Source: Eledone cirrhosa
Taxonomy: Eukaryota
DNA length: 64,000 nucleotides
Direction of reading: 5' to 3'
Assembly (NCBI GenBank): GCA_964016885.1
Contig: OZ024742.1
Coordinates: forward strand, 236,902,001-236,966,000
Made by a program: the position numbers and the translations under genes. Positions 2,215 to 51,680 of this stretch are shown here, one piece after another (within the stretch, counting starts at the first letter, position 1; every line of letters begins with the position of its first letter). Below the pieces are notes generated by a model that saw nothing but the letters and a program-made list of their open reading frames with translations, did no database searches and had not been told where the DNA came from.

Positions 2215-5200
2215 GGTGTTGTTGTGATTTTCGGTGTTGTGGTTGTTGTTGTTGTGATTTTTGGTGTTGTGGTTGTTGGTGTTGTTGTTATGACTTTTGG
2301 TGTTATGGTTGTTGGTGTTGTGATTTTTGGTGTTGTGGTTGTTGGTGTTGTTGTTGTTGTGAATTTTGGTGTTGTGGTTGTTGGTGTTGTTGTTGTTAGT
2401 GGTGTTGTTGGTGGTGGTTGTGGTAATGGTGTTGTTGGTATTGTTGATGGAGGGGACCTTGTTGTTGGTATTGTTGATGGTGGGGACCTTGTTGTTGGTA
2501 TTGTTGATGGTGGGGGCCTTGTTGTTGGTATTGTTGTTGGTGGGGGCTTTGTTGTTGGTATTGTTGTTGGTGGGGGCCTTGTTGTTGGTATTGTTGATGG
2601 TGGGGACCTTGTTGTTGGTATTGTTGATGGTGGGGACCTTGTTGTTGGTATTGTTGATGGATGGGACTTTGTTGTTGGTATTGTTGTTGGTGGGGGCCTT
2701 GTTGTTGGTATTGTTGATGGAGGGGGCCTTGTTGTTGGTATTGTTGTTGGTGGGGGCCTTGTTGTTGGTATTGTTGATGGAGGGGACCTTGTTGTTGGTA
2801 TTGTTGATGGAGGGGACCTTGTTGTTGGTATTGTTGATGGTGGGGGCCTTGTTGTTGGTATTGTTGCTGGAGGGGGCCGTGTTGTTGGTATTGTTGTTGG
2901 TGGGGGCCTTGTTGTTGGTATTGTTGATGGTGGGGTTCTTGTTGTTGGTATTGTTGATGGAGGGGACCTTGTTGTTGGTATTGTTGTTGGTGGGGTTCTT
3001 GTTGTTGGTATTGTTGATGGAGGGGGCCGTGTTGTTGGTATTGTTGTTGGTGGGGGCCTTGTTGTTGGTATTGTTGATGGTGGGGTTCTTGTTGTTGGTA
3101 TTGTTGATGGAGGGGACCTTGTTGTTGGTATTGTTGTTGGTGGGGGCCTTGTTGGTATTGTTGATGGAGGGGGCCTTGTTGGTATTGTTGTTGGTGGGGG
3201 CCTTGTTGTTGGTATTGTTGATGGATGGGACCTTGTTGTTGGTATTGTTGATGGTGGGGTTCTTGTTGTTGGTATTGTTGATGGATGGGACCTTGTTGTT
3301 GGTATTGTTGATGGTGGGGTTCTTGTTGTTGGTATTGTTGATGGAGGGGGCCGTGTTGTTGGTATTGTTGTTGGTGGGGGCCTTGTTGTTGGTATTGTTG
3401 ATGGAGGGGACCTTGTTGTTGGTATTGTTGATGGAGGGGACCTTGTTGTTGGTATTGTTGATGGAGGGGACCTTGTTGTTGGTATTGTTGATGGTGGGGA
3501 CCTTGTTGTTGGTATTGTTGATGGTGAGGTTCTTGTTGTTGGTATTGTTGATGGAGGGGGCCGTGTTGTTGGTATTGTTGATGGTGAGGTTCTTGTTGTT
3601 GGTATTGTTGATGGAGGGGGCCGTGTTGTTGGTATTGTTGATGGAGGGGACCTTGTTGTTGGTATTGTTGATGGTGAGGTTCTTGTTGTTGGTATTGTTG
3701 ATGGAGGGGGCCGTGTTGTTGGTATTGTTGTTGGTGGGGGCCTTGTTGTTGGTATTGTTGATGGAGGGGACCTTGTTGTTGGTATTGTTGATGGAGGGGA
3801 CCTTGTTGTTGGTATTGTTGATGGTGGGGGCCTTGTTGTTGGTATTGTTGATGGTGAGGTTCTTGTTGTTGGTATTGTTGATGGAGGGGGCCGTGTTGTT
3901 GGTATTGTTGTTGGTGGGGGCCTTGTTGTTGGTATTGTTGATGGAGGGGACCTTGTTGTTGGTATTGTTGATGGAGGGGACCTTGTTGTTGGTATTGTTG
4001 ATGGTGAGGTTCTTGTTGTTGGTATTGTTGATGGAGGGGGCCGTGTTGTTGGTATTGTTGTTGGTGGGGGCCTTGTTGGTATTGTTGATGGTGAGGTTCT
4101 TGTTGTTGGTATTGTTGATGGAGGGGGCCGTGTTGTTGGTATTGTTGTTGGTGGGGGCCTTGTTGGTATTGTTGATGGTGAGGTTCTTGTTGTTGGTATT
4201 GTTGATGGAGGGGGCCGTGTTGTTGGTATTGTTGTTGGTGGGGGCCTTGTTGGTATTGTTGATGGTGAGGTTCTTGTTGTTGGTATTGTTGATGGAGGGG
4301 GCCGTGTTGTTGGTATTGTTGTTGGTGGGGGCCTTGTTGGTATTGTTGATGGTGAGGTTCTTGTTGTTGGTATTGTTGATGGAGGGGGCCGTGTTGTTGG
4401 TATTGTTGTTGGTGGGGGCCTTGTTGGTATTGTTGATGGTGAGGTTCTTGTTGTTGGTATTGTTGATGGAGGGGGCCGTGTTGTTGGTATTGTTGTTGGT
4501 GGGGGCCTTGTTGGTATTGTTGATGGTGAGGTTCTTGTTGTTGGTATTGTTGATGGAGGGGGCCGTGTTGTTGGTATTGTTGTTGGTGGGGGCCTTGTTG
4601 GTATTGTTGATGGTGAGGTTCTTGTTGTTGGTATTGTTGATGGAGGGGGCCGTGTTGTTGGTATTGTTGTTGGTGGGGGCCTTGTTGTTGGTATTGTTGA
4701 TGGAGGGGACCTTGTTGTTGGTATTGTTGATGGAGGGGACCTTGTTGTTGGTATTGTTGATGGTGGGGGCCTTGTTGTTGGTATTGTTGTTGGTGGGGGC
4801 CTTGTTGGTATTGTTGATGGAGGGGGCCTTGTTGTTGGTATTGTTGATGGTGGGGGCCTTGTTGTTGGTATTGTTGATGGTGAGGTTCTTGTTGTTGGTA
4901 TTGTTGATGGAGGGGGCCGTGTTGTTGGTATTGTTGATGGATGGGACCTTGTTGTTGGTATTGTTGATGGTGGGGTTCTTGTTGTTGGTATTGTTGATGG
5001 AGGGGACCTTGTTGTTGGTATTGTTGATGGTGGGGGCCTTGTTGTTGGTATTGTTGATGGTGGGGTTCTTGTTGTTGGTATTGTTGATGGTGGGGACCTT
5101 GTTGTTGGTATTGTTGATGGATGGGACCTTGTTGTTGGTATTGTTGATGGTGGGGGCCTTGTTGTTGGTATTGTTGATGGTGGAGTTCTTGTTGTTGGTA

Positions 5201-8200
5201 TTGTTGATGGATGGGACCTTGTTGTTGGTATTGTTGATGGTGGGGTTCTTGTTGTTGGTATTGTTGATGGAGGGGGCCGTGTTGTTGGTATTGTTGTTGG
5301 TGGGGTTCTTGTTGTTGGTATTGTTGATGGAGGGGACCTTGTTGTTGGTATTGTTGATGGATGGGACCTTGTTGTTGGTATTGTTGATGGTGGGGGCCTT
5401 GTTGTTGGTATTGTTGATGGTGGGGTTCTTGTTGTTGGTATTGTTGTTGGTGGGGTTCTTGTTGTTGGTATTGTTGATGGTGGGGACCTTGTTGTTGGTA
5501 TTGTTGATGGAGGGGACCTTGTTGTTGGTATTGTTGTTGGTGGGGACCTTGTTGGTATTGTTGTTGGTGGGGGCCTTGTTGTTGGTATTGTTGATGGAGG
5601 GGACCTTGTTGTTGGTATTGTTGATGGAGGGGACCTTGTTGTTGGTATTGTTGATGGTGGGGGCCTTGTTGTTGGTATTGTTGATGGTGGGGTTCTTGTT
5701 GTTGGTATTGTTGATGGTGGGGACCTTGTTGTTGGTATTGTTGATGGAGGGGACCTTGTTGTTGGTATTGTTGTTGGTGGGGACCTTGTTGGTATTGTTG
5801 TTGGTGGGGGCCTTGTTGTTGGTATTGTTGATGGAGGGGACCTTGTTGTTGGTATTGTTGTTGGTGGGGACCTTGTTGTTGGTATTGTTGATGGAGGGGA
5901 CCTTGTTGTTGGTATTGTTGATGGTGGGGGCCTTGTTGTTGGTATTGTTGATGGTGGGGTTCTTGTTGTTGGTATTGTTGATGGTGGGGACCTTGTTGTT
6001 GGTATTGTTGATGGAGGGGACCTTGTTGTTGGTATTGTTGTTGGTGGGGACCTTGTTGGTATTGTTGTTGGTGGGGGCCTTGTTGTTGGTATTGTTGATG
6101 GAGGGGACCTTGTTGTTGGTATTGTTGATGGAGGGGACCTTGTTGTTGGTATTGTTGATGGAGGGGACCTTGTTGTTGGTATTGTTGATGGTGGGGGCCT
6201 TGTTGTTGGTATTGTTGATGGTGGGGTTCTTGTTGTTGGTATTGTTGATGGAGGGGACCTTGTTGTTGGTATTGTTGATGGAGGGGACCTTGTTGTTGGT
6301 ATTGTTGTTGGTGGGGACCTTGTTGGTATTGTTGTTGGTGGGGGCCTTGTTGTTGGTATTGTTGTTGGTGGGGGCCTTGTTGTTGGTATTGTTGTTGGTG
6401 GGGGCCTTGTTGTTGGTATTGTTGATGGTGGGGGCCTTGTTGTTGGTATTGTTGATGGTGGGGTTCTTGTTGTTGGTATTGTTGATGGATGGGACCTTGT
6501 TGTTGGTATTGTTGTTGGTGGGGGCCTTGTTGGTATTGTTGATGGAGGGGGCCTTGTTGGTATTGTTGTTGGTGGGGGCCTTGTTGTTGGTATTGTTGAT
6601 GGTGGGGGCCTTGTTGTTGGTATTGTTGATGGAGGGGACCTTGTTGTTGGTATTGTTGATGGAGGGGACCTTGTTGTTGGTATTGTTGATGGAGGGGACC
6701 TTGTTGTTGGTATTGTTGATGGTGGGGGCCTTGTTGTTGGTATTGTTGATGGTGGGGTTCTTGTTGTTGGTATTGTTGATGGTGGGGACCTTGTTGTTGG
6801 TATTGTTGATGGAGGGGACCTTGTTGTTGGTATTGTTGTTGGTGGGGACCTTGTTGGTATTGTTGTTGGTGGGGGCCTTGTTGTTGGTATTGTTGATGGA
6901 GGGGACCTTGTTGTTGGTATTGTTGATGGAGGGGACCTTGTTGTTGGTATTGTTGATGGAGGGGACCTTGTTGTTGGTATTGTTGATGGTGGGGGCCTTG
7001 TTGTTGGTATTGTTGATGGTGGGGTTCTTGTTGTTGGTATTGTTGATGGTGGGGACCTTGTTGTTGGTATTGTTGATGGAGGGGACCTTGTTGTTGGTAT
7101 TGTTGTTGGTGGGGACCTTGTTGGTATTGTTGTTGGTGGGGGCCTTGTTGTTGGTATTGTTGTTGGTGGGGGCCTTGTTGTTGGTATTGTTGTTGGTGGG
7201 GGCCTTGTTGTTGGTATTGTTGATGGTGGGGGCCTTGTTGTTGGTATTGTTGATGGTGGGGTTCTTGTTGTTGGTATTGTTGATGGTGAGGTTCTTGTTG
7301 TTGGTATTGTTGATGGTGGGGTTCTTGTTGTTGGTATTGTTGATGGTGGGGTTCTTGTTGTTGGTATTGTTGATGGTGGGGACCTTGTTGTTGGTATTGT
7401 TGATGGATGGGACCTTGTTGTTGGTATTGTTGTTGGTGGGGGCCTTGTTGGTATTGTTGATGGAGGGGGCCTTGTTGGTATTGTTGTTGGTGGGGGCCTT
7501 GTTGTTGGTATTGTTGATGGTGGGGTTCTTGTTGTTGGTATTGTTGATGGAGGGGACCTTGTTGTTGGTATTGTTGATGGTGGGGGCCTTGTTGTTGGTA
7601 TTGTTGTTGGTGGGGGCCTTGTTGTTGGTATTGTTGATGGTGGGGTTCTTGTTGTTGGTATTGTTGATGGATGGGACCTTGTTGTTGGTATTGTTGATGG
7701 TGGGGGCCTTGTTGTTGGTATTGTTGATGGTGGGGTTCTTGTTGTTGGTATTGTTGATGGAGGGGACCTTGTTGTTGGTATTGTTGATGGTGGGGGCCTT
7801 GTTGTTGGTATTGTTGTTGGTGGGGTTCTTGTTGTTGGTATTGTTGATGGATGGGACCTTGTTGTTGGTATTGTTGATGGTGGGGGCCTTGTTGTTGGTA
7901 TTGTTGATGGTGGGGTTCTTGTTGTTGGTATTGTTGATGGATGGGACCTTGTTGTTGGTATTGTTGATGGTGGGGGCCTTGTTGTTGGTATTGTTGATGG
8001 TGGGGTTCTTGTTGTTGGTATTGTTGATGGAGGGGACCTTGTTGTTGGTATTGTTGATGGTGGGGGCCTTGTTGTTGGTATTGTTGTTGGTGGGGGCCTT
8101 GTTGGTATTGTTGATGGTGGGGGCCTTGTTGTTGGTATTGTTGATGGTGGGGTTCTTGTTGTTGGTATTGTTGATGGATGGGACCTTGTTGTTGGTATTG

Positions 8201-9197
8201 TTGATGGTGGGGGCCTTGTTGTTGGTATTGTTGATGGTGGGGTTCTTGTTGTTGGTATTGTTGATGGAGGGGACCTTGTTGTTGGTATTGTTGATGGTGG
8301 GGGCCTTGTTGTTGGTATTGTTGATGGAGGGGACCTTGTTGTTGGTATTGTTGATGGTGGGGTTCTTGTTGTTGGTATTGTTGATGGAGGGGACCTTGTT
8401 GTTGGTATTGTTGATGGTGGGGTTCTTGTTGTTGGTATTGTTGATGGATGGGACCTTGTTGTTGGTATTGTTGATGGTGGGGGCCTTGTTGTTGGTATTG
8501 TTGATGGTGGGGTTCTTGTTGTTGGTATTGTTGATGGAGGGGACCTTGTTGTTGGTATTGTTGATGGTGGGGGCCTTGTTGTTGGTATTGTTGATGGTGG
8601 GGTTCTTGTTGTTGGTATTGTTGCTGGAGGGGGCTTTGTTGTTGGTATTGTTGCTGGAGGGGGCTTTGTTGTTGGTATTGTTGATGGAGGGGGCTTTGTT
8701 GTTGGTATTGTTGTGGTTTTTGTTGTTAGTGGAGTTATTGTTGGTGGTGGCGTTGTTATTGGTAGTGGTGTTGTTGGTGGTTGTAATAATGGTGTTGATG
8801 CTGGTGGTTGTGTTGTCATTGGCAGTGAAACTGTTATTGGTGTTGTTGGTGGTGGTAGTGGTAGTGGTGGTTGTGATAATGGTGTTGATGCTGGTGGTTG
8901 TGTTGTCATTGGCAGTGAAACTGTTATTGGTGTTGTTGTTGGTGGTGGTGGTAGTGGTGGTTGTGATAATGGTGTTGATGCTGGTGGTTGTGTTGTCATT
9001 GGCAGTGAAACTGTTATTGGTGTTGTTGTTGTTGTTGGTGGTGGTGGTCGTATTGTTTGTGTTGTTTCTGTAGGTTCGATTCCTAGACTAGGTAACACGT
9101 TGTATCTTTGAGCAAGATACTTTACTTCTCGTTGCTCCTTCTGCCAAAGGTTGCATCCCGTAGATAGTATCAGCAATGGAAAAACCAATGAAAACAT
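2166..9197 (-). CDS. Possible mucin-like PTS-repeat ORF (TIPTTRPPPS)n; coding status doubtful
   Basis: 2343-aa ORF, but the unit is stop-free in most frames and the N-terminus overlaps an antisense SINE. Confidence 0.2.
2431..8710. repeat. 30-bp (and 27-bp variant) minisatellite, roughly 210 units, with higher-order blocks
   Basis: Unit gttgttggtattgttgatggtgggggcctt with a few recurrent variants; three ~95-bp diverged repeats follow at ~8770-9050. Confidence 0.97.
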
Positions 9198-21110: not shown

Positions 21111-21635
21111 TACGATTTCTAAATTTGGCATACAACCAAGAATTTATTGGGAGAGGAAAGTCGATTGCATCTACCAAGTATATGATTGGTATGCAATGCA
21201 AAGTTGATCTGGAGGTCTGGACGGGATCTAAACCCGGAAATAAATGCCACCGCTCAAAAACAAAGGAAACTAAGAGAAAGAACGAAATCCTTCGAAGGTT
21301 AAACAAAAACCTGACCAGAAACTGATTTTCAACAGATATACTGGTATAATGTTAATGTTATGAGACCATGTCAGCGAGGGATGATGAAGGTTTTGGCTTA
21401 TTAAGAAATAAACAAAATATGAATGTAACAGTTTTTTATGTTTTCTTGAAGGTCTAGAACTCCTGTTCCATGATGTAATTATTTCAGCTTTAATCTACAG
21501 TCTCTTACTAGGTTATATATATATATATATATGTATATAGTGGTAGAACACTGGAAGGTAATATCCGTAGTGGTAGAGCACACAGTCCATGGGACGAGTT
21601 GGTAGAAGTGGTTACACAACAGTTAGTTCACCATA

Positions 21636-21675
21636 TCGAGAACAATTGTTTCACCTTAAAGGATCCTCAGCTTGG
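21636..21675 (-). ncRNA. Minimal hammerhead motif, left arm of palindrome
   Basis: ccaag-CTGAGGA-t cc tttaa gg t-GAAA-c aatt g-TT-ctcga. Confidence 0.65.
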
Positions 21676-21678
21676 ATT

Positions 21679-21718
21679 CCGAGCTGAGGATCCGCTAAGG
21701 TGAAACAATTGTTCTCGG
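21679..21718 (+). ncRNA. Minimal hammerhead motif, right arm of palindrome
   Basis: ccgag-CTGAGGA-t cc gctaa gg t-GAAA-c aatt g-TT-ctcgg; palindromic loop III. Confidence 0.8.
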
Positions 21719-21745
21719 TATGGTGAACTAACTGTTGTGTAACCA

Positions 21746-22057: not shown

Positions 22058-22060
<3 letters not shown>

Positions 22061-22636
22061 AAATGGTGAGCTGTGTTGTTACAATTAAGTGTAATGAAAA
22101 ATTAGAAATTAGAAGTTAGGATTATCCATCATCAGTTGTCTACTAGGCGTCATAGGCATTTCTTCGCGTTACAGACAATATACCTCCTTCTAGGGCGAAA
22201 CAATTACTAAAATAAGTTATTGGGATAAAAAGAAGTGGGTGGAGAAAGAGAAGGACATATAAACAGACACGATGGGTGAGGCAACGTAAAGAGAGGAAAA
22301 GAGGAAACAAATCAAGTCAATAATTCATTTCGAACATAAGAACGGGCGAATTTTGACGAGGAGAAAAATATTACGTCTTGACCGCGCGGGTGTGAACGAG
22401 AAGAAAGACCGCGTACAGTGTTGGACGATGGAGGAAGAGAGTAACAGAGAGTGAGTGAGTGAAAATGCGAGGAAGAGGCTAGCCGAGAGGGGGTGAGTAA
22501 AAGTAAGAGGGAGAAGGAGCGAGAGAAGGGGGAGAGAGAGAGAAGATAACAGCAAGGGAAGAGAAAAAAGACGAGTCATAGCAGAGGGGGAGGCGTATAT
22601 GAATCAAGATGGCGAGCTGTGTTGTTGCAATTAAGT
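22058..22636 (-). mobile_element. ~580-bp non-coding element with 33-bp terminal direct repeats, in (TA)n
   Basis: tcaaaatggtgagctgtgttgttacaattaagt / tcaagatggcgagctgtgttgttgcaattaagt; homologous to 35580-36200. Confidence 0.7.
22122..22228 (-). ncRNA. Permuted hammerhead-like motif, copy 1
   Basis: TTATCC hairpin TTCGC..AGGTA-TA-TTGTCTG..GCGAA-GAAA-TGCCT..TAGACAA-CTGATGA-T-GGATAA. Confidence 0.55.
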
Positions 22637-23592
22637 ATATATATATGAATATATATACATATATATATAGTATACCTGCGCATTTTAAAATACAATATAG
22701 AGAGGAATGAAAGTGCCCAGGAAAACTACTTCCTTTGAGCTCATTGAATTACAGGATTATACGTGAGTCCTTTACTCCGTTATTTTACTTGATATTTACT
22801 CTTCGTCTTCTCTCTACAGACAAGCACGATAAATTAAATAGTATAGGCTGCCATCTCTAGCAGCTTGATCTCTTCATACCACATGTCACTGCCTCGCGCA
22901 CTTATTTCCCTCTATTCACACGTGCTACAGGTCAGTTACTATAGTTATCTTTAGTAGCGGGGACAATGTCAGCTTAAGCACTTGCTGATGATCCAAGAGC
23001 TGGGTTTGCAACCATTAATAACTGTGAAACAATTTCTTAGTGAGTTTGTACAAGTGCGATTTAGTTATGAGGTAGGTTTTTCATTTTAATTTATCCTTTT
23101 AATTATTACGTTTCTTCTATACCTCTCTTAGCTTATATTCTCTTCACGCTGGTGGTTAAAATCCTGTAAATGTAAACAAACTCTCCTGTGTGTTTCCTCT
23201 CTATATTATATATATAGTGTCGATAAAATAAAGTACCAGTAATGTACTGGGTAATTGCTGGCCTTGTGCCTAAAGTAGAAACAATTATATATATAGTGTG
23301 TGTGGGTAGTACGGTGAAATACTGGTGTTGGTACCAAATCAAGCACTCTATGCACAGACAGAGTGTATATAATATAAAAAAACGAAGAAGTTTCGTTTAC
23401 ATATCAAAAATATTTATTGCGTATCGACCTGTTACGCACGTTTCACAGAGGATTGGCTCAAGGTGACCCATAGGAGTTATGGACCCGACTCCAGTATCGA
23501 TCTACTATTCAGACTGGTGATGTGACGAAAGATATATTTTTGTTGTGGTATGTGGGCCGAGAAGATATATATATATATAGGCATCGGCCCTA

Positions 23593-26091: not shown

Positions 26092-26122
<31 letters not shown>

Positions 26123-26870
26123 GTAACCCATGTGAAACCACGCAGTATTCTTCTTTCATGAGAAGAAAGAAGAATACTACGTGGTTGCACATGGGTTACA
26201 TATATATATATAAATATATATATAACGAAGGAAATGTGGTAAGGAACCAGGTGGACCATAACGCACCAAAGTACTCAATACTTGGGGTAGTAGAGTGGGT
26301 AATAGGAACCAGTAAGACCCCGACGGCTGAGCTCAAGCCGTCTCGACTGTATATCTATATATAAATATATATATATATATAGATATACAGTCGGGAGTTT
26401 TATATCGAGTGATAATAATATTCGTTTGCAAGAAAACATCATTGCGCTATAGTTTTTCGACGACTATTGCCATCCTTTTGTTCTAGTGGTGGCAGAGAGA
26501 AACAACCGACAATGTTGTTTCTGTGTTATTGCCCTTTGTCAAGATTGTGTATTTCTCTCTTCTTTGTCACACACTAGAACTCTTAAGAATATATTGTATT
26601 CTCTAAACTATGCATCGATTGATTTGCCTAATTTACATACCGAGCGATTTTACCTCGAGAACAGGTCGATGTTCTGGGACCCAGAAACAATATTATTGTC
26701 AATAGAACAATCGGATGACGATAGTCGTGTAAAACACATTGCGTAATGAAGCTGTTTGCTTGCAAACGAATTGAATGTAATTATCATTCTATATAAAACT
26801 CACGAATGCATTTACATATCCGTTATGTTCGAGCGGAAACTAATTTTGTTTATACACACACGCACGTGCG

Positions 26871-27337: not shown

Positions 27338-27419
27338 AGATAAATTAATGAGTATAGCTTCACACACAAATATACACACACATGTGTATGTGTGTGTGTG
27401 TGTAATACTAAGGAACCAA

Positions 27420-27830
27420 TCCACAGGAAACATTTGAATTGTAACTGCAGGAAACCAGACAAATGGCCCCTGCAAAATAAATGTATATGTGAGAATATAA
27501 TATACCAGTACGAGATTAAAGTGAATAACCAAAAATTCAGGTATATAGGAGAAACATCCAACTTTTTTATGAAGAGATGGTATGTACACACACACTCGTT
27601 TGAAAACCTTAAACTTAGAAACTCATCTGCCTTAGCTGATAAAATTTGGGAATTAATAAAATCCCCAAAAGTACGAAATTTCTTCGTCTTTCCTGGGATT
27701 TGCCCGTCAGTATCAACAAAATACAGGTCATATTCGTACACTTGAAGTTTACCATATAATAACCGGTACAAAATTAGTACATACTAGACAGGAACGAATT
27801 TTTAATTGCAGACACAAACAACTTAAAACC
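27420..27830 (+). mobile_element. PLE GIY-YIG endonuclease fragment
   Basis: CNCRKPDKWPLQNKC..NIIYQY..RYIGETS..KRWYVH. Confidence 0.85.
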
Positions 27831-35138: not shown

Positions 35139-35648
35139 AGCTATCCAAGTAATATGGTGGTATTTATATCTTTTCTGGTGATTGGGATGGGTGGAGGTCA
35201 TTGGTTGATGGGTTTTAAGAAAAGGGAATTCTTTAAGAACTATATTTACAATAACAAAGGCAGAAATAATTCTATAGACTCTGGGGATGCCACTCTTGAT
35301 TTTTTAGGTTCACTTAAACTAACAATGGATTTGGTCAGATGTCTACAAGCACGTTCACACACACACACACATATATATATATTAGAAAAAGGAACTAAGG
35401 TTCTTTACAAAACAGTGGATATAGAGAAAAGGTGAAGTTGGAAATAGCACGGAAAATATATTTAAGGGTCTGTTTTTCTTTTTGATTCGTCAAAGTGACA
35501 TTATTGAAGAAATAACATTATTGTAAAAATGAGAGGGACAATTCTCCCCCCCCCCCTCTCTCTCTCTATATATATATATGATTGAAAATGGCGTGCTGCG
35601 TTGTTGCAAATATGAACATATGAATGAAAATAGATCGAGAAACATGAA

Positions 35649-35752
35649 TGTCCATCATCAGTAGTCTGCTGATTATCATTGGTATTTCTTCGCATTAAAG
35701 ACTAGATACCTAAAATCAGTGCGAGCGATAACTAAATTGAGTTATCGGGACA
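35649..35752 (-). ncRNA. Permuted hammerhead-like motif, copy 2
   Basis: TGTCC hairpin TCGCA..AGGTA-TC-TAGTCT..TGCGAA-GAAA-TACC..AGACTA-CTGATGA-T-GGACA. Confidence 0.6.
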
Positions 35753-36097
35753 GAGGAAAGTAAACAGACAACATGGTAGTAATGCAACGTAAAGAGAGAG
35801 ACAAGTCAATGAATCTTGTGGACTTAAGTCCGAACACATCAAATGACGAGAAGAGGCAGACATGTCCGAGCCACCCGAAAAGTGAGAGAGAAAAGAATTT
35901 CACACAGGTCAGACGGGAGGATGTGAGAGAGGGGGAGTAGCAGAGAGTGAGTGAGTGAAAGTGTGAGGAGGAGGCCAGCCGAGAGTGTGTGACCAGCAGC
36001 GGGGGTGAAAGAAAGCAAGAGGTAAAGGAGAGAGAAGTGGGAGAGAGAAAGAGGATAGCAGTAAGGTGGCAGAAAAAATACGAACCACAGCGAAGGG

Positions 36098-36173
36098 TCG
36101 CACTGATTTTAGGTATCTAGTCTTTAATGCGAAGAAATACCAATGATAATCAGCAGACTACTGATGATGGACA
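36098..36173 (+). ncRNA. Inverted duplicate of permuted motif copy 2, lacking its 5'-most strand
   Basis: 36098-36205 is the reverse complement of ~35617-35724. Confidence 0.55.
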
Positions 36174-36209
36174 TTCATGTTTCTCGATCTATTTTCATTT
36201 ATATGTATA

Positions 36210-37355: not shown

Positions 37356-37510
37356 GAAATATAAGGTTTCACCGTATTTTTGACTAAAGAAATGTTTAGC
37401 CTGATAGCGGGGTTTAGAACCCTCGGAGAAAGGGAAAAAGATGAGTCTTGACGTACATGGGAGTCGAACCCACATCTTTGGTTATCCAGACCACTGTGCT
37501 ACCATTACAC

Positions 37511-37741
<231 letters not shown>

Positions 37742-38938: not shown

Positions 38939-39787
38939 TTATAGCCCTAGTCTACCCCCCCCCCCCCCCGGGTCATTATGGGGTTTGAGGGCGAGGTAAG
39001 TCCTACGCAATCTATGTTTACATGCAGTGACCAGTTCATCTTTCTTGTTTAGGAGTTGGTCCGTCGAAAACAGCATTTGTAAAGTTTCCTCCGAGCATAA
39101 ATTGCACGGACGGCGTCCTCCCGTGTAAGAATTGGCTCTGGACAGTAATCTCCAAGTGAGATCATAGGTGATGTTGTTGTCCTTGAGGTCCCATATGTGG
39201 CCCGAAAGTGTAGTGGCGTGACGCCGGGCCGGGTTTCGGAAGGTATGTCTATGTTGGTATAGCCGGGTCTTGAAGTCACATGCGGTAAGTCCTATATAGG
39301 CTTTGTTGGAGGTATCCGTCCTCACGTTGCACTGGTAGATCACATTACGGTCTCTGCATCTATTGTCGAGTGGGCAAATAGATCTATCCGGGCAGTTACA
39401 CCTCCTGGTCGGTTCTCCACTGCTATTTAGGTTATTTCTGCCATCGGGGTTGAGTTTTTTGTTGTTAGAGGAGACGATGTTTTGTGCGAAGTTTGGTGTA
39501 GTGCTGTAAGAGAGTTTGATGGTATTTTTGTTAATTATGTTGTGGTAGCGGTGTTGTAATGGGAAGTGTTTTTCAATGAGCCTAAAGAATAGTTTCCCGA
39601 TGGGAGTTATCACCTCTGCGTTGTGGGGAGGATTGAACCATGTTACATTGCGTGAGCGGCGGTGTCTCCTGCTGGTTCCGCTAATGGGAGCTGGACAGTA
39701 GGATATTTCCTCCCGGAAACCACTCCGCTTGAGGGCCTGGTTGTAATAAGGCGCATATTCATCGAATATCCGCTCATTAGCTGACAA
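38939..39787 (-). CDS. PLE RT thumb/linker + GIY-YIG endonuclease, truncated; homology continues to ~39891 past a stop
   Basis: WFNPP, IKLSYS, CNC..CPL..C, NVIYQC..AYIGLT..FKTR..QH, CNLC.EE. Confidence 0.9.
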   Translation of the reverse strand: MSANERIFDEYAPYYNQALKRSGFREEISYCPAPISGTSRRHRRSRNVTWFNPPHNAEVITPIGKLFFRLIEKHFPLQHRYHNIINKNTIKLSYSTTPNFAQNIVSSNNKKLNPDGRNNLNSSGEPTRRCNCPDRSICPLDNRCRDRNVIYQCNVRTDTSNKAYIGLTACDFKTRLYQHRHTFRNPARRHATTLSGHIWDLKDNNITYDLTWRLLSRANSYTGGRRPCNLCSEETLQMLFSTDQLLNKKDELVTACKHRLRRTYLALKPHNDPGGGGGRLGL

Positions 39788-40357
39788 ACGGGATATGCGG
39801 AGGGAGATGTTTTTGACCAGGTTGTTTGTGATGTTCCTAGGATGGTTTGATCAGCGGTGGATGTAGTGCAGATTGTCATTAGGTTTCCTGTATCATTTAC
39901 GTACTTATACCTCTTAAAAGGGTCCTTGCCTATTCCGTCCCACCTAGTTCTTTTACTTATTTCGTTATTTCTTTATTTATTTATTTCTTTACTTCTTTCT
40001 TTCTTTATTTATTTTATTCTAACCTAACAATAGCCTGAGACCTAGGTCGTAGAATTTAATTTACTTTACTTTTTTCTTTACACTTATTTGCTTTTCTTCA
40101 CTCTCAGTATTTTTTCTTTCCTATATTTCTACCCCCCATTGTTCTACCTACCGTTCCGACTTCCTCCCCCTCCCCCTCCCCTGTATCTTCTTTGACCTCA
40201 TGCCCAGCTGTAGCTGGCACTACCAACGCTTGATTGGGTCTACTCCACCCCTCCCCTCTTTCTCCTACTGGCAGGTTTAGCCACCATCTCCCCTACTAAT
40301 TTGCAACCACAGAATTACTACTGATTTTTGACAATCACTTTGACCATATATGGAATT

Positions 40358-40451: not shown

Positions 40452-40608
40452 CTTACTGGTTCCTATTACCCACTCTACTACCTCAAGTATTGAGTACTTT
40501 GGTGCGTTATGGTCCACCTGGTTCCTTACCACATTTCCTTCGTTATATATATATATATATATGTGCTACCATTACACCAACATATATATATATGTTGGTG
40601 TAATGGTA

Positions 40609-40960
<352 letters not shown>

Positions 40961-50450: not shown

Positions 50451-50611
50451 CTATACACGCACACACCTTGGTATTGTTGATAATGTTGCGATTTTCCCAA
50501 ACTCTCTTTTCCTATTTTCCGAAGGCAACAGAGGCTTTCTGAATGCGCAGATATATTTCAGCATCCAAGGAGCCATCATTTGACAGTGTGCTACCCAAGT
50601 AGTACATACAT

Positions 50612-50639
<28 letters not shown>

Positions 50640-50642
<3 letters not shown>

Positions 50643-51680
50643 CCATAACCACAAACGCAACATTCCTACAGACCAACTGCAAGCACTAAACAACTTACAG
50701 AAAGACACCTCAATAATTATAAAAGAAGCTGACAAAGGTGGAGCAATCGTAATCATGGACAAAACCCACTACAAGGATATGGCCCTAGAACAGTTGAATG
50801 ACGAGGACTTCTACAAGAAAATAAACAAAAGTGGAAAGAGAAAAACAAAGATGCCAGTAGGTAAACTGACTACAAAATATCAAAATAATCTTACGCTAAA
50901 GGAAATCAATTACTTAACTAACTTTGAAGTGAAAATCAGTAATTTTTATGGATTGCTGAAACTACATAAATCGAGACAAATCGAAACAATCTTAGTCAGC
51001 TTTGACGTAACAAGCTTGTACACTAGCATCCCATACCAGTGACAATACCGAGAAAAACAAACCAACAACATAAATGGGAAAAAGAGGTTATCCCTTTTGT
51101 CGTCACCCACAATCTAAGGAACTTCAACATTGTGAAAGCCGCTAAACAATATCTCCCGATTCTCCAACAGTCCCTAAAAATGAATGCTCTCATAAAATAC
51201 TTACAAATAATATATAGTAGACGCCAAGCACCTAACCTAAAAAGAAACAGCTTACCAAGGCAACATTTAAATCTGGCAACGAAACAATGCAAGTGAAGAA
51301 ATATGGAGACCCTTGATGCGGTTCTTGCGAATTCATTGAAGACAATGAACTTTTAGAAACAATGAGATTTTCAAAATTAACGCAAACATGATTTGCAAAT
51401 CAAAATACTTAATTTATTGTACAGGTTGTCCATATTGTAAAGAATACTACATTGGAGAAACCGGAACGGGTTTACATGTCAGGGTTAGGGTCCATAAACA
51501 ACAAATTAGAAACCCCTCTGACAGAAACACCACATGCAGTGAACACTTCGCATCACGTGGGAAGGGAAAATTCGAAATCTTCCCCTTCTTTAAGATATGG
51601 TCGTACAACGAACATTTCCGGAAGAAGAATTCTTCATTAGAAAGTACAAGTCACAACTGAATATAAAAAATTAAAAAAAT
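50640..51680 (+). mobile_element. Internally deleted PLE (Cys-linker, Neptune-like)
   Basis: IIKEADKGGAIVIMDK, LVSFDVTSLYTSIP, LIYCTGCPYCKEYYIGETG. Confidence 0.88.

Follow-up and report, generated by a model that had tools for sequence, protein, structure and literature searches.

A predicted hammerhead fold with non-circular block order and an upstream stem II strand in a Penelope-like repeat of Eledone cirrhosa

Hammerhead ribozymes with a non-circular block order have been described as types SGC and CSG. According to Eckert, Friedrich, Weinberg and Weinberg 2023 (PMC10085705), type SGC was found in metatranscriptomes only and type CSG in 2 metagenome sequences, RNAs of both types cleave in vitro, and single-copy constructs in which 0–2 nt separate the interaction helix from stem III already cleave while being transcribed. 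Minimal type I hammerheads in the pseudo-long terminal repeats (pLTRs) of Penelope elements were reported to work as dimers, with low activity in vitro (Cervera and de la Pena 2014, PMC4209133). Penelope-like elements, including the Naiads, form partial tandems and inverted 5' copies, carry a 30–40 bp tail and have (TA)n targets, and the Naiads were reported without canonical hammerheads, the labels 'HHR_core' and 'HHR_half_core' standing unexplained in the excerpts of that paper (Craig et al. 2021, PMC8557442). A preprint by Li et al. 2026 (bioRxiv 10.64898/2026.07.22.740005) mentions Naiad only as a clade in the excerpted text. We analyzed a 64,000-nt stretch of Eledone cirrhosa DNA (the window; NCBI GenBank assembly GCA_964016885.1, contig OZ024742.1, positions 236,902,001 to 236,966,000 of the forward strand), in which two loci, representing two subfamilies of a ~550-nt non-coding Penelope-like repeat, carry a putative hammerhead near the 3' end of the repeat. 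Searches of the open-access literature turned up neither a permuted hammerhead in a retroelement nor the split core described here.

Hammerhead blocks were present at both loci on the minus strand in the order S-G-C, that is, the block with the U-H site, the block with GAAA and the block with CTGATGA (Table 1). A script parse of both copies gave, from 5' to 3', the strand Da, hairpin P, Db, X, three unpaired letters, III', U-H, I and a four-letter linker, followed by Db', A, GAAA, III, NAT-GA-N, X', I', CTGATGA, T and Da'. Every strand listed in the first-pass annotation, a model's reading of the window's letters, was found in place by sequence check and script parse, and the non-circular order that it proposed was recovered at both loci. 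Copy 1 had one mismatch in hairpin P and a decayed X helix. A structure descriptor matched exactly these two places in the window; across 120 genome loci it gave 36 matches within the middle 450 nt, compared to 0 matches in 600 shuffles with CTGANGA and GAAA held fixed. On viral-contig loci the descriptor had no matches. Rfam gave no hammerhead among the best 150 of 189 window matches and nothing at gathering score for 4 motif loci, and the core was not recovered by single-sequence folding of 7 sequences (z 0.2 to -4.7). Invisibility to standard descriptors had been anticipated in the first-pass annotation, and the published SGC descriptors, which need CGAAA and a direct stem II (PMC10085705), cannot match this motif. 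We regard a conserved RNA fold as close to certain.

Judged by its letters and pairings, the motif reads as a hammerhead core in which the blocks follow a non-circular S-G-C order and a stem II strand is supplied from upstream. Five helices meet at the core, namely I, III and II (equivalent to Db), plus Da and P, which are placed between A9 and 10.1. The strand after CUGAUGA pairs with Da and the strand before GAAA pairs with Db, which bears out the earlier proposal of a bridged stem II, with an upstream strand pairing with both stem II-side strands. We read Db as stem II because, in three relatives (copy L096 of a related CGAAA family, copy L593 of an R2-group element and a coral family), the C before GAAA has its partner in a G on the upstream strand, and the strand after A9 would leave into Da, stacked on P, to give a five-way junction. 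A direct stem II between blocks G and C was ruled out, as only one U-A pair is possible. Stems I and III flank the core in the right register for a hammerhead; in a standard stem II, R10.1-Y11.1 has 10.1 beside A9, whereas here the 10.1 strand lies upstream and is not joined to A9.

The UUAA linker bridges the far ends of I and II, where X begins, and X runs back to stem III through a loop that fits the kink-turn consensus (McPhee, Huang and Lilley 2014, PMC4382518), with a 3-nt bulge, G.A, A.G and mostly U.U next. The n-strand was TGA in 58, GGA in 10 and TTA in 4 of 79 window-family copies, opposite an NAT bulge; 2n was G in 46/75 and 1n was A in 73/75, and subfamily 2 had U at 2n (27/75). 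The first-pass annotation had described one extended straight stem III. Its 'distal stem III' is better read as an interaction helix between stems I and II, joined to stem III by the kink-turn consensus. Other families with this core had a 3-nt bulge (L096), a bulge of 6 nt beyond a long stem III (coral family) or, by eye, a 1-nt bulge.

Table 1. Repeat copies and elements of the predicted fold in the window.
Feature	Position in window	Strand	Remarks
Copy 1 of repeat (subfamily 1)	22058..22640	-	between (TA)n tracts; ~45-nt 3' tail repeated at 5' end (~22596-22640)
Copy 1, ribozyme fold	22122..22228	-	sequence and parse
Copy 1, Da	22228-22223/22127-22122	-	
Copy 1, stem II (Db)	22199-22195/22167-22163	-	
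Copy 1, X	22193-22188/22148-22143	-	partly decayed
Copy 1, stem III	22184-22181/22158-22155	-	
Copy 1, stem I	22178-22173/22141-22136	-	
Copy 1, GAAA	22162-22159	-	
Copy 1, CTGATGA	22135-22129	-	
Copy 1, U16.1-A17	22179..22180	-	predicted cut between 22179 and 22178 (AUA), by hammerhead analogy
Copy 1, kink-turn consensus between stem III and X	22149..22187	-	GGA 22187-22185; TAT-GA-C 22154-22149
Copy 2 of repeat (subfamily 2)	35575..36097	-	ends in tail and (AT)n
Copy 2, ribozyme fold	35649..35752	-	script parse
Copy 2, Da	35752-35748/35653-35649	-	TGTCC/GGACA
Copy 2, hairpin P	35747-35726	-	CGATAAC/GTTATCG
Copy 2, stem II (Db)	35724-35720/35694-35690	-	TCGCA/TGCGA
Copy 2, X	35719-35714/35674-35669	-	CTGATT/AATCAG
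Copy 2, stem III	35710-35707/35684-35681	-	GGTA/TACC
Copy 2, stem I	35704-35699/35667-35662	-	TAGTCT/AGACTA
Copy 2, TTAA linker	35698-35695	-	
Copy 2, GAAA	35688-35685	-	
Copy 2, CTGATGA	35661-35655	-	
Copy 2, U16.1-C17	35705..35706	-	predicted cut between 35705 and 35704 (AUC), by hammerhead analogy
Copy 2, kink-turn-like loop	35675..35713	-	TTA 35713-35711; AAT-GA-T 35680-35675; 2n = U, standard = G
Inverted 5'-truncated duplicate of copy 2 3' end	36098..36206	+	starts at Db strand; without Da 5' strand and P

Pairing was compared in two sets of copies. The first was an alignment of 75 copies picked for an intact 5' half (75 of 84 rows, with 9 CGAAA-family rows omitted for length), whose covariation represents few subfamily events (six clusters). 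In this set, 36 named pairs held in 94.9% of 2,700 cells, and 243 two-sided changes were counted; shuffled data gave 90, and slid controls never exceeded 37. Two-sided changes occurred in 5/6 pairs of X, 3/6 of stem I, 3/8 of P and 1/5 each of Da and Db, and stem III pairing was likewise 94.9%. The second set (79 of 133 copies) was anchored only on blocks G and C, and its 5' half was not selected. Here the X pairs held in 92.8% (85.0 at most with swapped partners) and the stem I pairs in 94.5% (92.8 at most with swapped partners), and U-H was kept at the predicted cut site in 78 of 79 copies, which had not been selected for U-H. RNAalifold recovered P and X blind. The covariation that the first-pass annotation had seen between two copies was supported. 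Its stem III AGGTA/TGCCT held in the inner pairs and failed in the terminal A-T pair, where the 3' letter was T in 32, A in 36 and G in 7 of 75 copies. As a separate observation, columns 5–9 of the alignment selected for an intact 5' half (A1) would pair with columns 105–109 in an alternative outer-helix register, which would take in G8-A9-U-G-G and switch the core off.

More distant relatives differed in further helices. Stem III was GATG/CATC and stem II GGCGC/GCGCC in the CGAAA-family copy L096; the R2-group copy L593 had III GGGTG/CACCC, II GGGTC/GACCC and a Da of 12 bp; and the coral family had II GGCTCC/GGAGCC, I CAGGAT/ATCCTG and a long stem III. Every helix changes in concert between distant families, with II and III doing so only between those. 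The CGAAA, coral and R2-group families all had G10.1-C11.1 directly before GAAA. In the window's families, the A at 11.1 may pair with the U after A9, which is able to do so in 64/75 copies, or with the upstream strand.

The repeat that carries the fold is abundant. The pattern GAAGAAA-N16-28-CTGATGATGG had 1,251 exact matches in the genome, compared to 3 for the reversed control, and first-look candidates numbered 1,734 for subfamily 1 and 1,414 for subfamily 2, of which the best 40 were scored each. Related CGAAA families added up to 922 further matches, compared to 49 in controls. The sequence shared upstream of the ribozyme stopped at one unit or a partial tandem (114 loci), and the unit ended ~27–30 or 65–78 nt after the ribozyme, mostly in (AT)n. 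Units were variably 5'-truncated, often with an inverted truncated copy ahead and with the tail repeated at the 5' end, and head-to-tail tandems had spacings of 567 and 538 bp. No reverse transcriptase (RT)-like frame was seen among the frames listed for the repeat unit. The inverted duplicate next to copy 2 reads as a Penelope-like insertion signature, and together the 5' truncation, partial tandems, inverted 5' copy, tail and lack of coding capacity identify the repeat, on sequence features, as a non-autonomous Penelope-like element.

An abundant Penelope element with RT followed by GIY-YIG was considered as the source of the motif and rejected, given the canonical-order core at its 3' end in the portion listed. 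This RT-linker-GIY-YIG element had 35,445 first-look candidates and open frames of up to 1,291 aa (L241–L260). It inserts in (TA)n, carries a minimal canonical-order hammerhead core in its 3' region, and was found beside repeat copies in L003, L037, L042 and L116. We consider it a candidate mobiliser of the window's repeat.

The full fold was also read by eye at the 3' ends of Naiad_Obim and Naiad_Ovul, in three Acropora Naiad consensus sequences and in two further ones (PMC8557442 supplement). The ends of Naiad_Obim and Naiad_Ovul share the P loop, the kink and a CATTTTGAT-like terminus with the window's repeat, a likeness to octopus Naiads that by itself would point to a probable cephalopod host. 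By the same approach, S-G-C order was read in the Naiad_Bfor and Naiad_Esco ends and C-S-G order in several nematode Naiads and one further Naiad, and no such motif was seen in the consensus excerpts examined for Naiad_Adux, Naiad-1_Skow and other ends. Of 120 loci fetched in a metagenome scan, most had the Acropora-type motif. At locus L343, the motif follows a coral Naiad-type RT, whose C-terminus lies 286 nt upstream in the same orientation, and a 954-aa homologue has the Naiad order GIY-YIG, CxC, DKA, RT. The Naiad link is based on L343 and on the published consensus ends read by eye. Within the Eledone genome, two DNA patterns for the Naiad open reading frame (ORF) gave 0 matches and one gave 4 chance matches, and a Naiad motif scan of 145 sources gave none. 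Protein searches, one of them with a stricter first look, found decayed remnants only (L385–L391 and L568–L592; old and stop-ridden), and no ribozyme motif lay downstream of those checked (0/13 and 0/7).

An R2-group element of the same genome, a retroelement without long terminal repeats (non-LTR), ends in the same fold (24 matches compared to 0 in controls; L392–L394, L544–L567 and L593, C2:317451022 and 317454621). Its copies had RT and RLE-type frames upstream of the fold, although the RLE domain was not named by either PDB or Pfam, and its relatives occur in fish and amphioxus, presumably those named HERO and Zebulon. In several copies the 3' end directly adjoined the element's own 5' region with a period of 3,599 bp, and the script parse gave a loop similar to a kink-turn. 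The same nine-strand order was found in four sequence-unrelated families. Diverged 3' ends with S-G-C order and an upstream stem II strand were also read by eye in L395, L396, L397, L553, L555 and L562.

Cutting of the template after H17 should leave truncated copies that start at position 1.1. In the coral family, 42 of 70 copies ended within 8 positions on the 3' side of the predicted cut, 5 of them exactly at the cut (p ~1e-6 for this site), and the following 45 nt held the ends of 5 copies. Among the 14 rows of a looser listing of this family, 7 started exactly at the site beside unrelated flanks, and another 3 were ambiguous. Only 1 of 21 R2-group loci started near the site, with no formal spike test. 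The copy ends point to a cleavage footprint in a relative, the coral family, and not in the window's copies. We consider self-cleavage, by one copy or by two, to be probable, and the fold likely works like a hammerhead that cuts the element's own RNA after AUC or AUA.

How the core assembles was considered with a crude rigid-rod model, which used assumed helix dimensions, coaxial II and III (PMC4209133) and a 50-degree kink taken from the literature. In this model the coral family never closed in cis at any kink angle tried (at least 37 Å compared to 31 Å allowed), the window's families were borderline in cis at 50 degrees (30 compared to 31 Å) and feasible at 35, and the 3-nt-bulge family closed in cis only at 35 degrees or less. 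A symmetric dimer fitted all families. We favor cutting by two copies in tandem, with slightly less than even confidence, because cis closure fails for the coral family, tandems exist and Penelope hammerheads were reported to be dimeric. The nested rod Da-P-X-III would form first, and its terminal loop (UH-I-linker-II'-GAAA) would dock in the junction of a neighboring copy (I'-CUGAUGA and the Db strand), yielding two cores per dimer. Tandem read-through RNA would be cut to unit length and could be re-ligated to a circle, copying would proceed by a Penelope-type RT supplied in trans, from an internal site 30–70 nt downstream, and single copies would stay uncut. The first-pass annotation had rightly kept such trans-assembly as a live option, and it had missed both the position at the 3' end of a Penelope-like repeat and the link to Naiad and R2-group elements. 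Its argument from a straight rod fails for the two window copies, because the kink-turn consensus separates stem III from X, though it holds for relatives.

Several points weigh against a hammerhead that cuts as two copies. CUGANGA, GAAA and the GA at 1b-2b of the kink were part of the selection pattern of the 75-copy alignment, so that core invariance is built in; within these copies stem III had no two-sided change and Db almost none, and in the second set the stem III pairs (94.0%) held no better than the swapped control. The outer helix given by RNAalifold is in a shifted register that would bury G8-A9. Position 11.1 was A in 72/75 copies of the window's families, in which the canonical G10.1-C11.1 pair is therefore missing. 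As for the footprint, 29 of the 42 coral ends lie at a T-rich linker next to the search pattern, where microhomology could explain them; 11/133 copies of the window's families ended 3' of the site, 1 exactly, and 19 in the next 45 nt (p 0.08); the CGAAA family had 11/52 such ends (p 0.0014, or 0.07 without 6 pattern-edge ends); and family 4 showed no excess of ends at the site (2/15). DNA patterns, motif scan and protein searches found no intact Naiad in the genome. Finally, the rod model is a coarse one, and a kink-turn favors fold-back in cis.

The same ribozyme could instead fold from one copy in cis as a triple-crossing pseudoknot, the kink-turn bending X back along stem III and the core to the ends of I and II; we hold this as a tentative alternative, in which a 15.5K-type protein may be needed to hold the kink. 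The kink-turn consensus in the window's families and in Naiad_Obim and Naiad_Ovul, the similar loop in the R2-group element and the borderline to feasible closure of the window's families in the rod model all speak for it, as do the SGC and CSG constructs that cleave as single copies, and box C/D-type kinks are folded by L7Ae where ions alone do not suffice (PMC4382518). However, bulges of 3, 6 or 1 nt stand in for the kink in relatives that share the core, the coral family carries the footprint yet is unable to close in the model, and subfamily 2 departs from the consensus at 2n.

It is unlikely that the fold is real and non-cutting in the window's families, serving as a hammerhead-derived scaffold recognized by RT or persisting as an attenuated relic in which A11.1 marks lost catalysis. 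The A at 11.1 and the lack of an end spike at the site would fit such a loss, the cut would fall inside the retrotransposed 3' end, and minimal Penelope hammerheads are themselves weakly active in vitro (PMC4209133). Against this stand the U-H kept in nearly all unselected copies, the U after A9 that could pair with A11.1, the G10.1-C11.1 pair kept by related families and the coral copies that end at the site. A chance likeness, or a box C/D small-RNA remnant that mimics a hammerhead, is very improbable: CUGA and AUGAUG words are present and covariation in one family reflects few independent events (six subfamily rows), but the core-preserving shuffles never matched the descriptor, four unrelated families share the strand order, the 4 motif loci had no Rfam snoRNA match, and the boxes are internal, with D before C.

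On a broader reading, the Naiads, their non-autonomous repeats and the R2-group non-LTR clade might all share one terminal hammerhead with a split core and a five-way junction (of CSG order in the nematode Naiads), which would act as a dimer to cut tandem or circular precursors; through the natural kink-turn, a host protein of the 15.5K type could shift it from two-copy to one-copy folding and back. Such a widespread and overlooked system is a speculative extension that we would sooner doubt than assume. With this motif, non-circular permutations of the hammerhead, so far a matter of a few metatranscriptome RNAs, are placed in the chromosomes of animals, where they number thousands of copies. 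It also contradicts the assumption, stated in earlier work, that CUGAnGA is inseparable from its stem II strand. Cutting, which is likely, would explain why Naiad elements were reported without a hammerhead, and suggests an RNA-processing step common to Penelope-like and R2-group elements that form head-to-tail arrays. At ~105 nt, and given its predicted cut site and compensatory variants, the RNA could be assayed in days, the question of cis or dimer included.

Other features were noted in the window. Near-perfect palindromes lie between (TA)n tracts at 21632–21722, 26103–26219 and 40551–40624; the second resembles a head-to-head join of the family 4 tail, and the other two look like small inverted insertions. 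Other Penelope-type RT and GIY-YIG frame remnants occur at ~38942–39850 (minus strand), at 27344–27783 and 50584–51040 (plus strand) and at the window end (minus strand). A 30-bp tandem array of ~212 copies spans 2430–8717 and is G/T-rich on the plus strand; its minus strand could encode a Pro/Thr-rich mucin-like repeat. Rfam tRNA matches just over the gathering score at 37457–37512 (minus strand) and 40797–40852 (plus strand) are probably heads of tRNA-derived short interspersed elements (SINEs).

Compared to known elements, the window's repeat resembles the Naiads (PMC8557442) in tandems, inverted copies, tail, (TA)n targets and the 3'-end fold of several consensuses, but has no ORF. Its loop resembles standard and box C/D kink-turns (PMC4382518) in the 3-nt bulge followed by G.A and A.G, mostly with U.U next; unlike standard kink-turns, it sits inside a natural hammerhead fold, has U at 2n in subfamily 2 and is known from sequence alone. 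Like the minimal type I hammerheads described from Penelope pLTRs and from non-LTR retrozymes (PMC4209133; bioRxiv 10.64898/2026.07.22.740005), the motif is placed in the terminal repeat of Penelope-like elements and of tandem repeats that are non-autonomous, and it is proposed both to act as a dimer and to process precursor RNA. Those hammerheads have canonical C-G-S order and a weak palindromic stem III, whereas here stem III is full and the core five-way.

The closest likeness is to the rearranged types (PMC10085705). Type CSG shares the UUAA linker between I and II and an interaction helix that runs almost directly into stem III, but its chain starts and stops at the joint of stem III with the interaction helix, and it has a three-helix core without Da or P. 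Joining the CSG ends and then opening the circle after A9 gives the order of the window's motif. The two published CSG metagenome sequences share their layout with nematode Naiad 3' ends (PMC8557442), and may be retroelement DNA. Type SGC (HRIMA-1 and variants) shares the S-G-C order, the short linker between stems I and II, the extra I-II helix, CUGAUGA followed by U and then G, and an interaction helix tied to stem III, which poses the same geometric puzzle. The frog precedent named in the first-pass annotation found no counterpart, as the main text of PMC10085705 has 0 matches for frog or Xenopus and its SGC RNAs come from metatranscriptomes; its supplement, in the excerpts, has 0 matches for 'kink'. 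In type SGC, blocks G and C form stem II directly. Here, block C is split, the stem II strand lies upstream, Da and P follow A9, and X is continuous with stem III on both strands; the motif sits in the chromosomes of animals, within retroelements. The interruption of block C places it outside type SGC as that type was defined. Its topology is what results when the circle common to SGC and CSG (Eckert 2023) is opened anew at the joint of A9 and 10.1.
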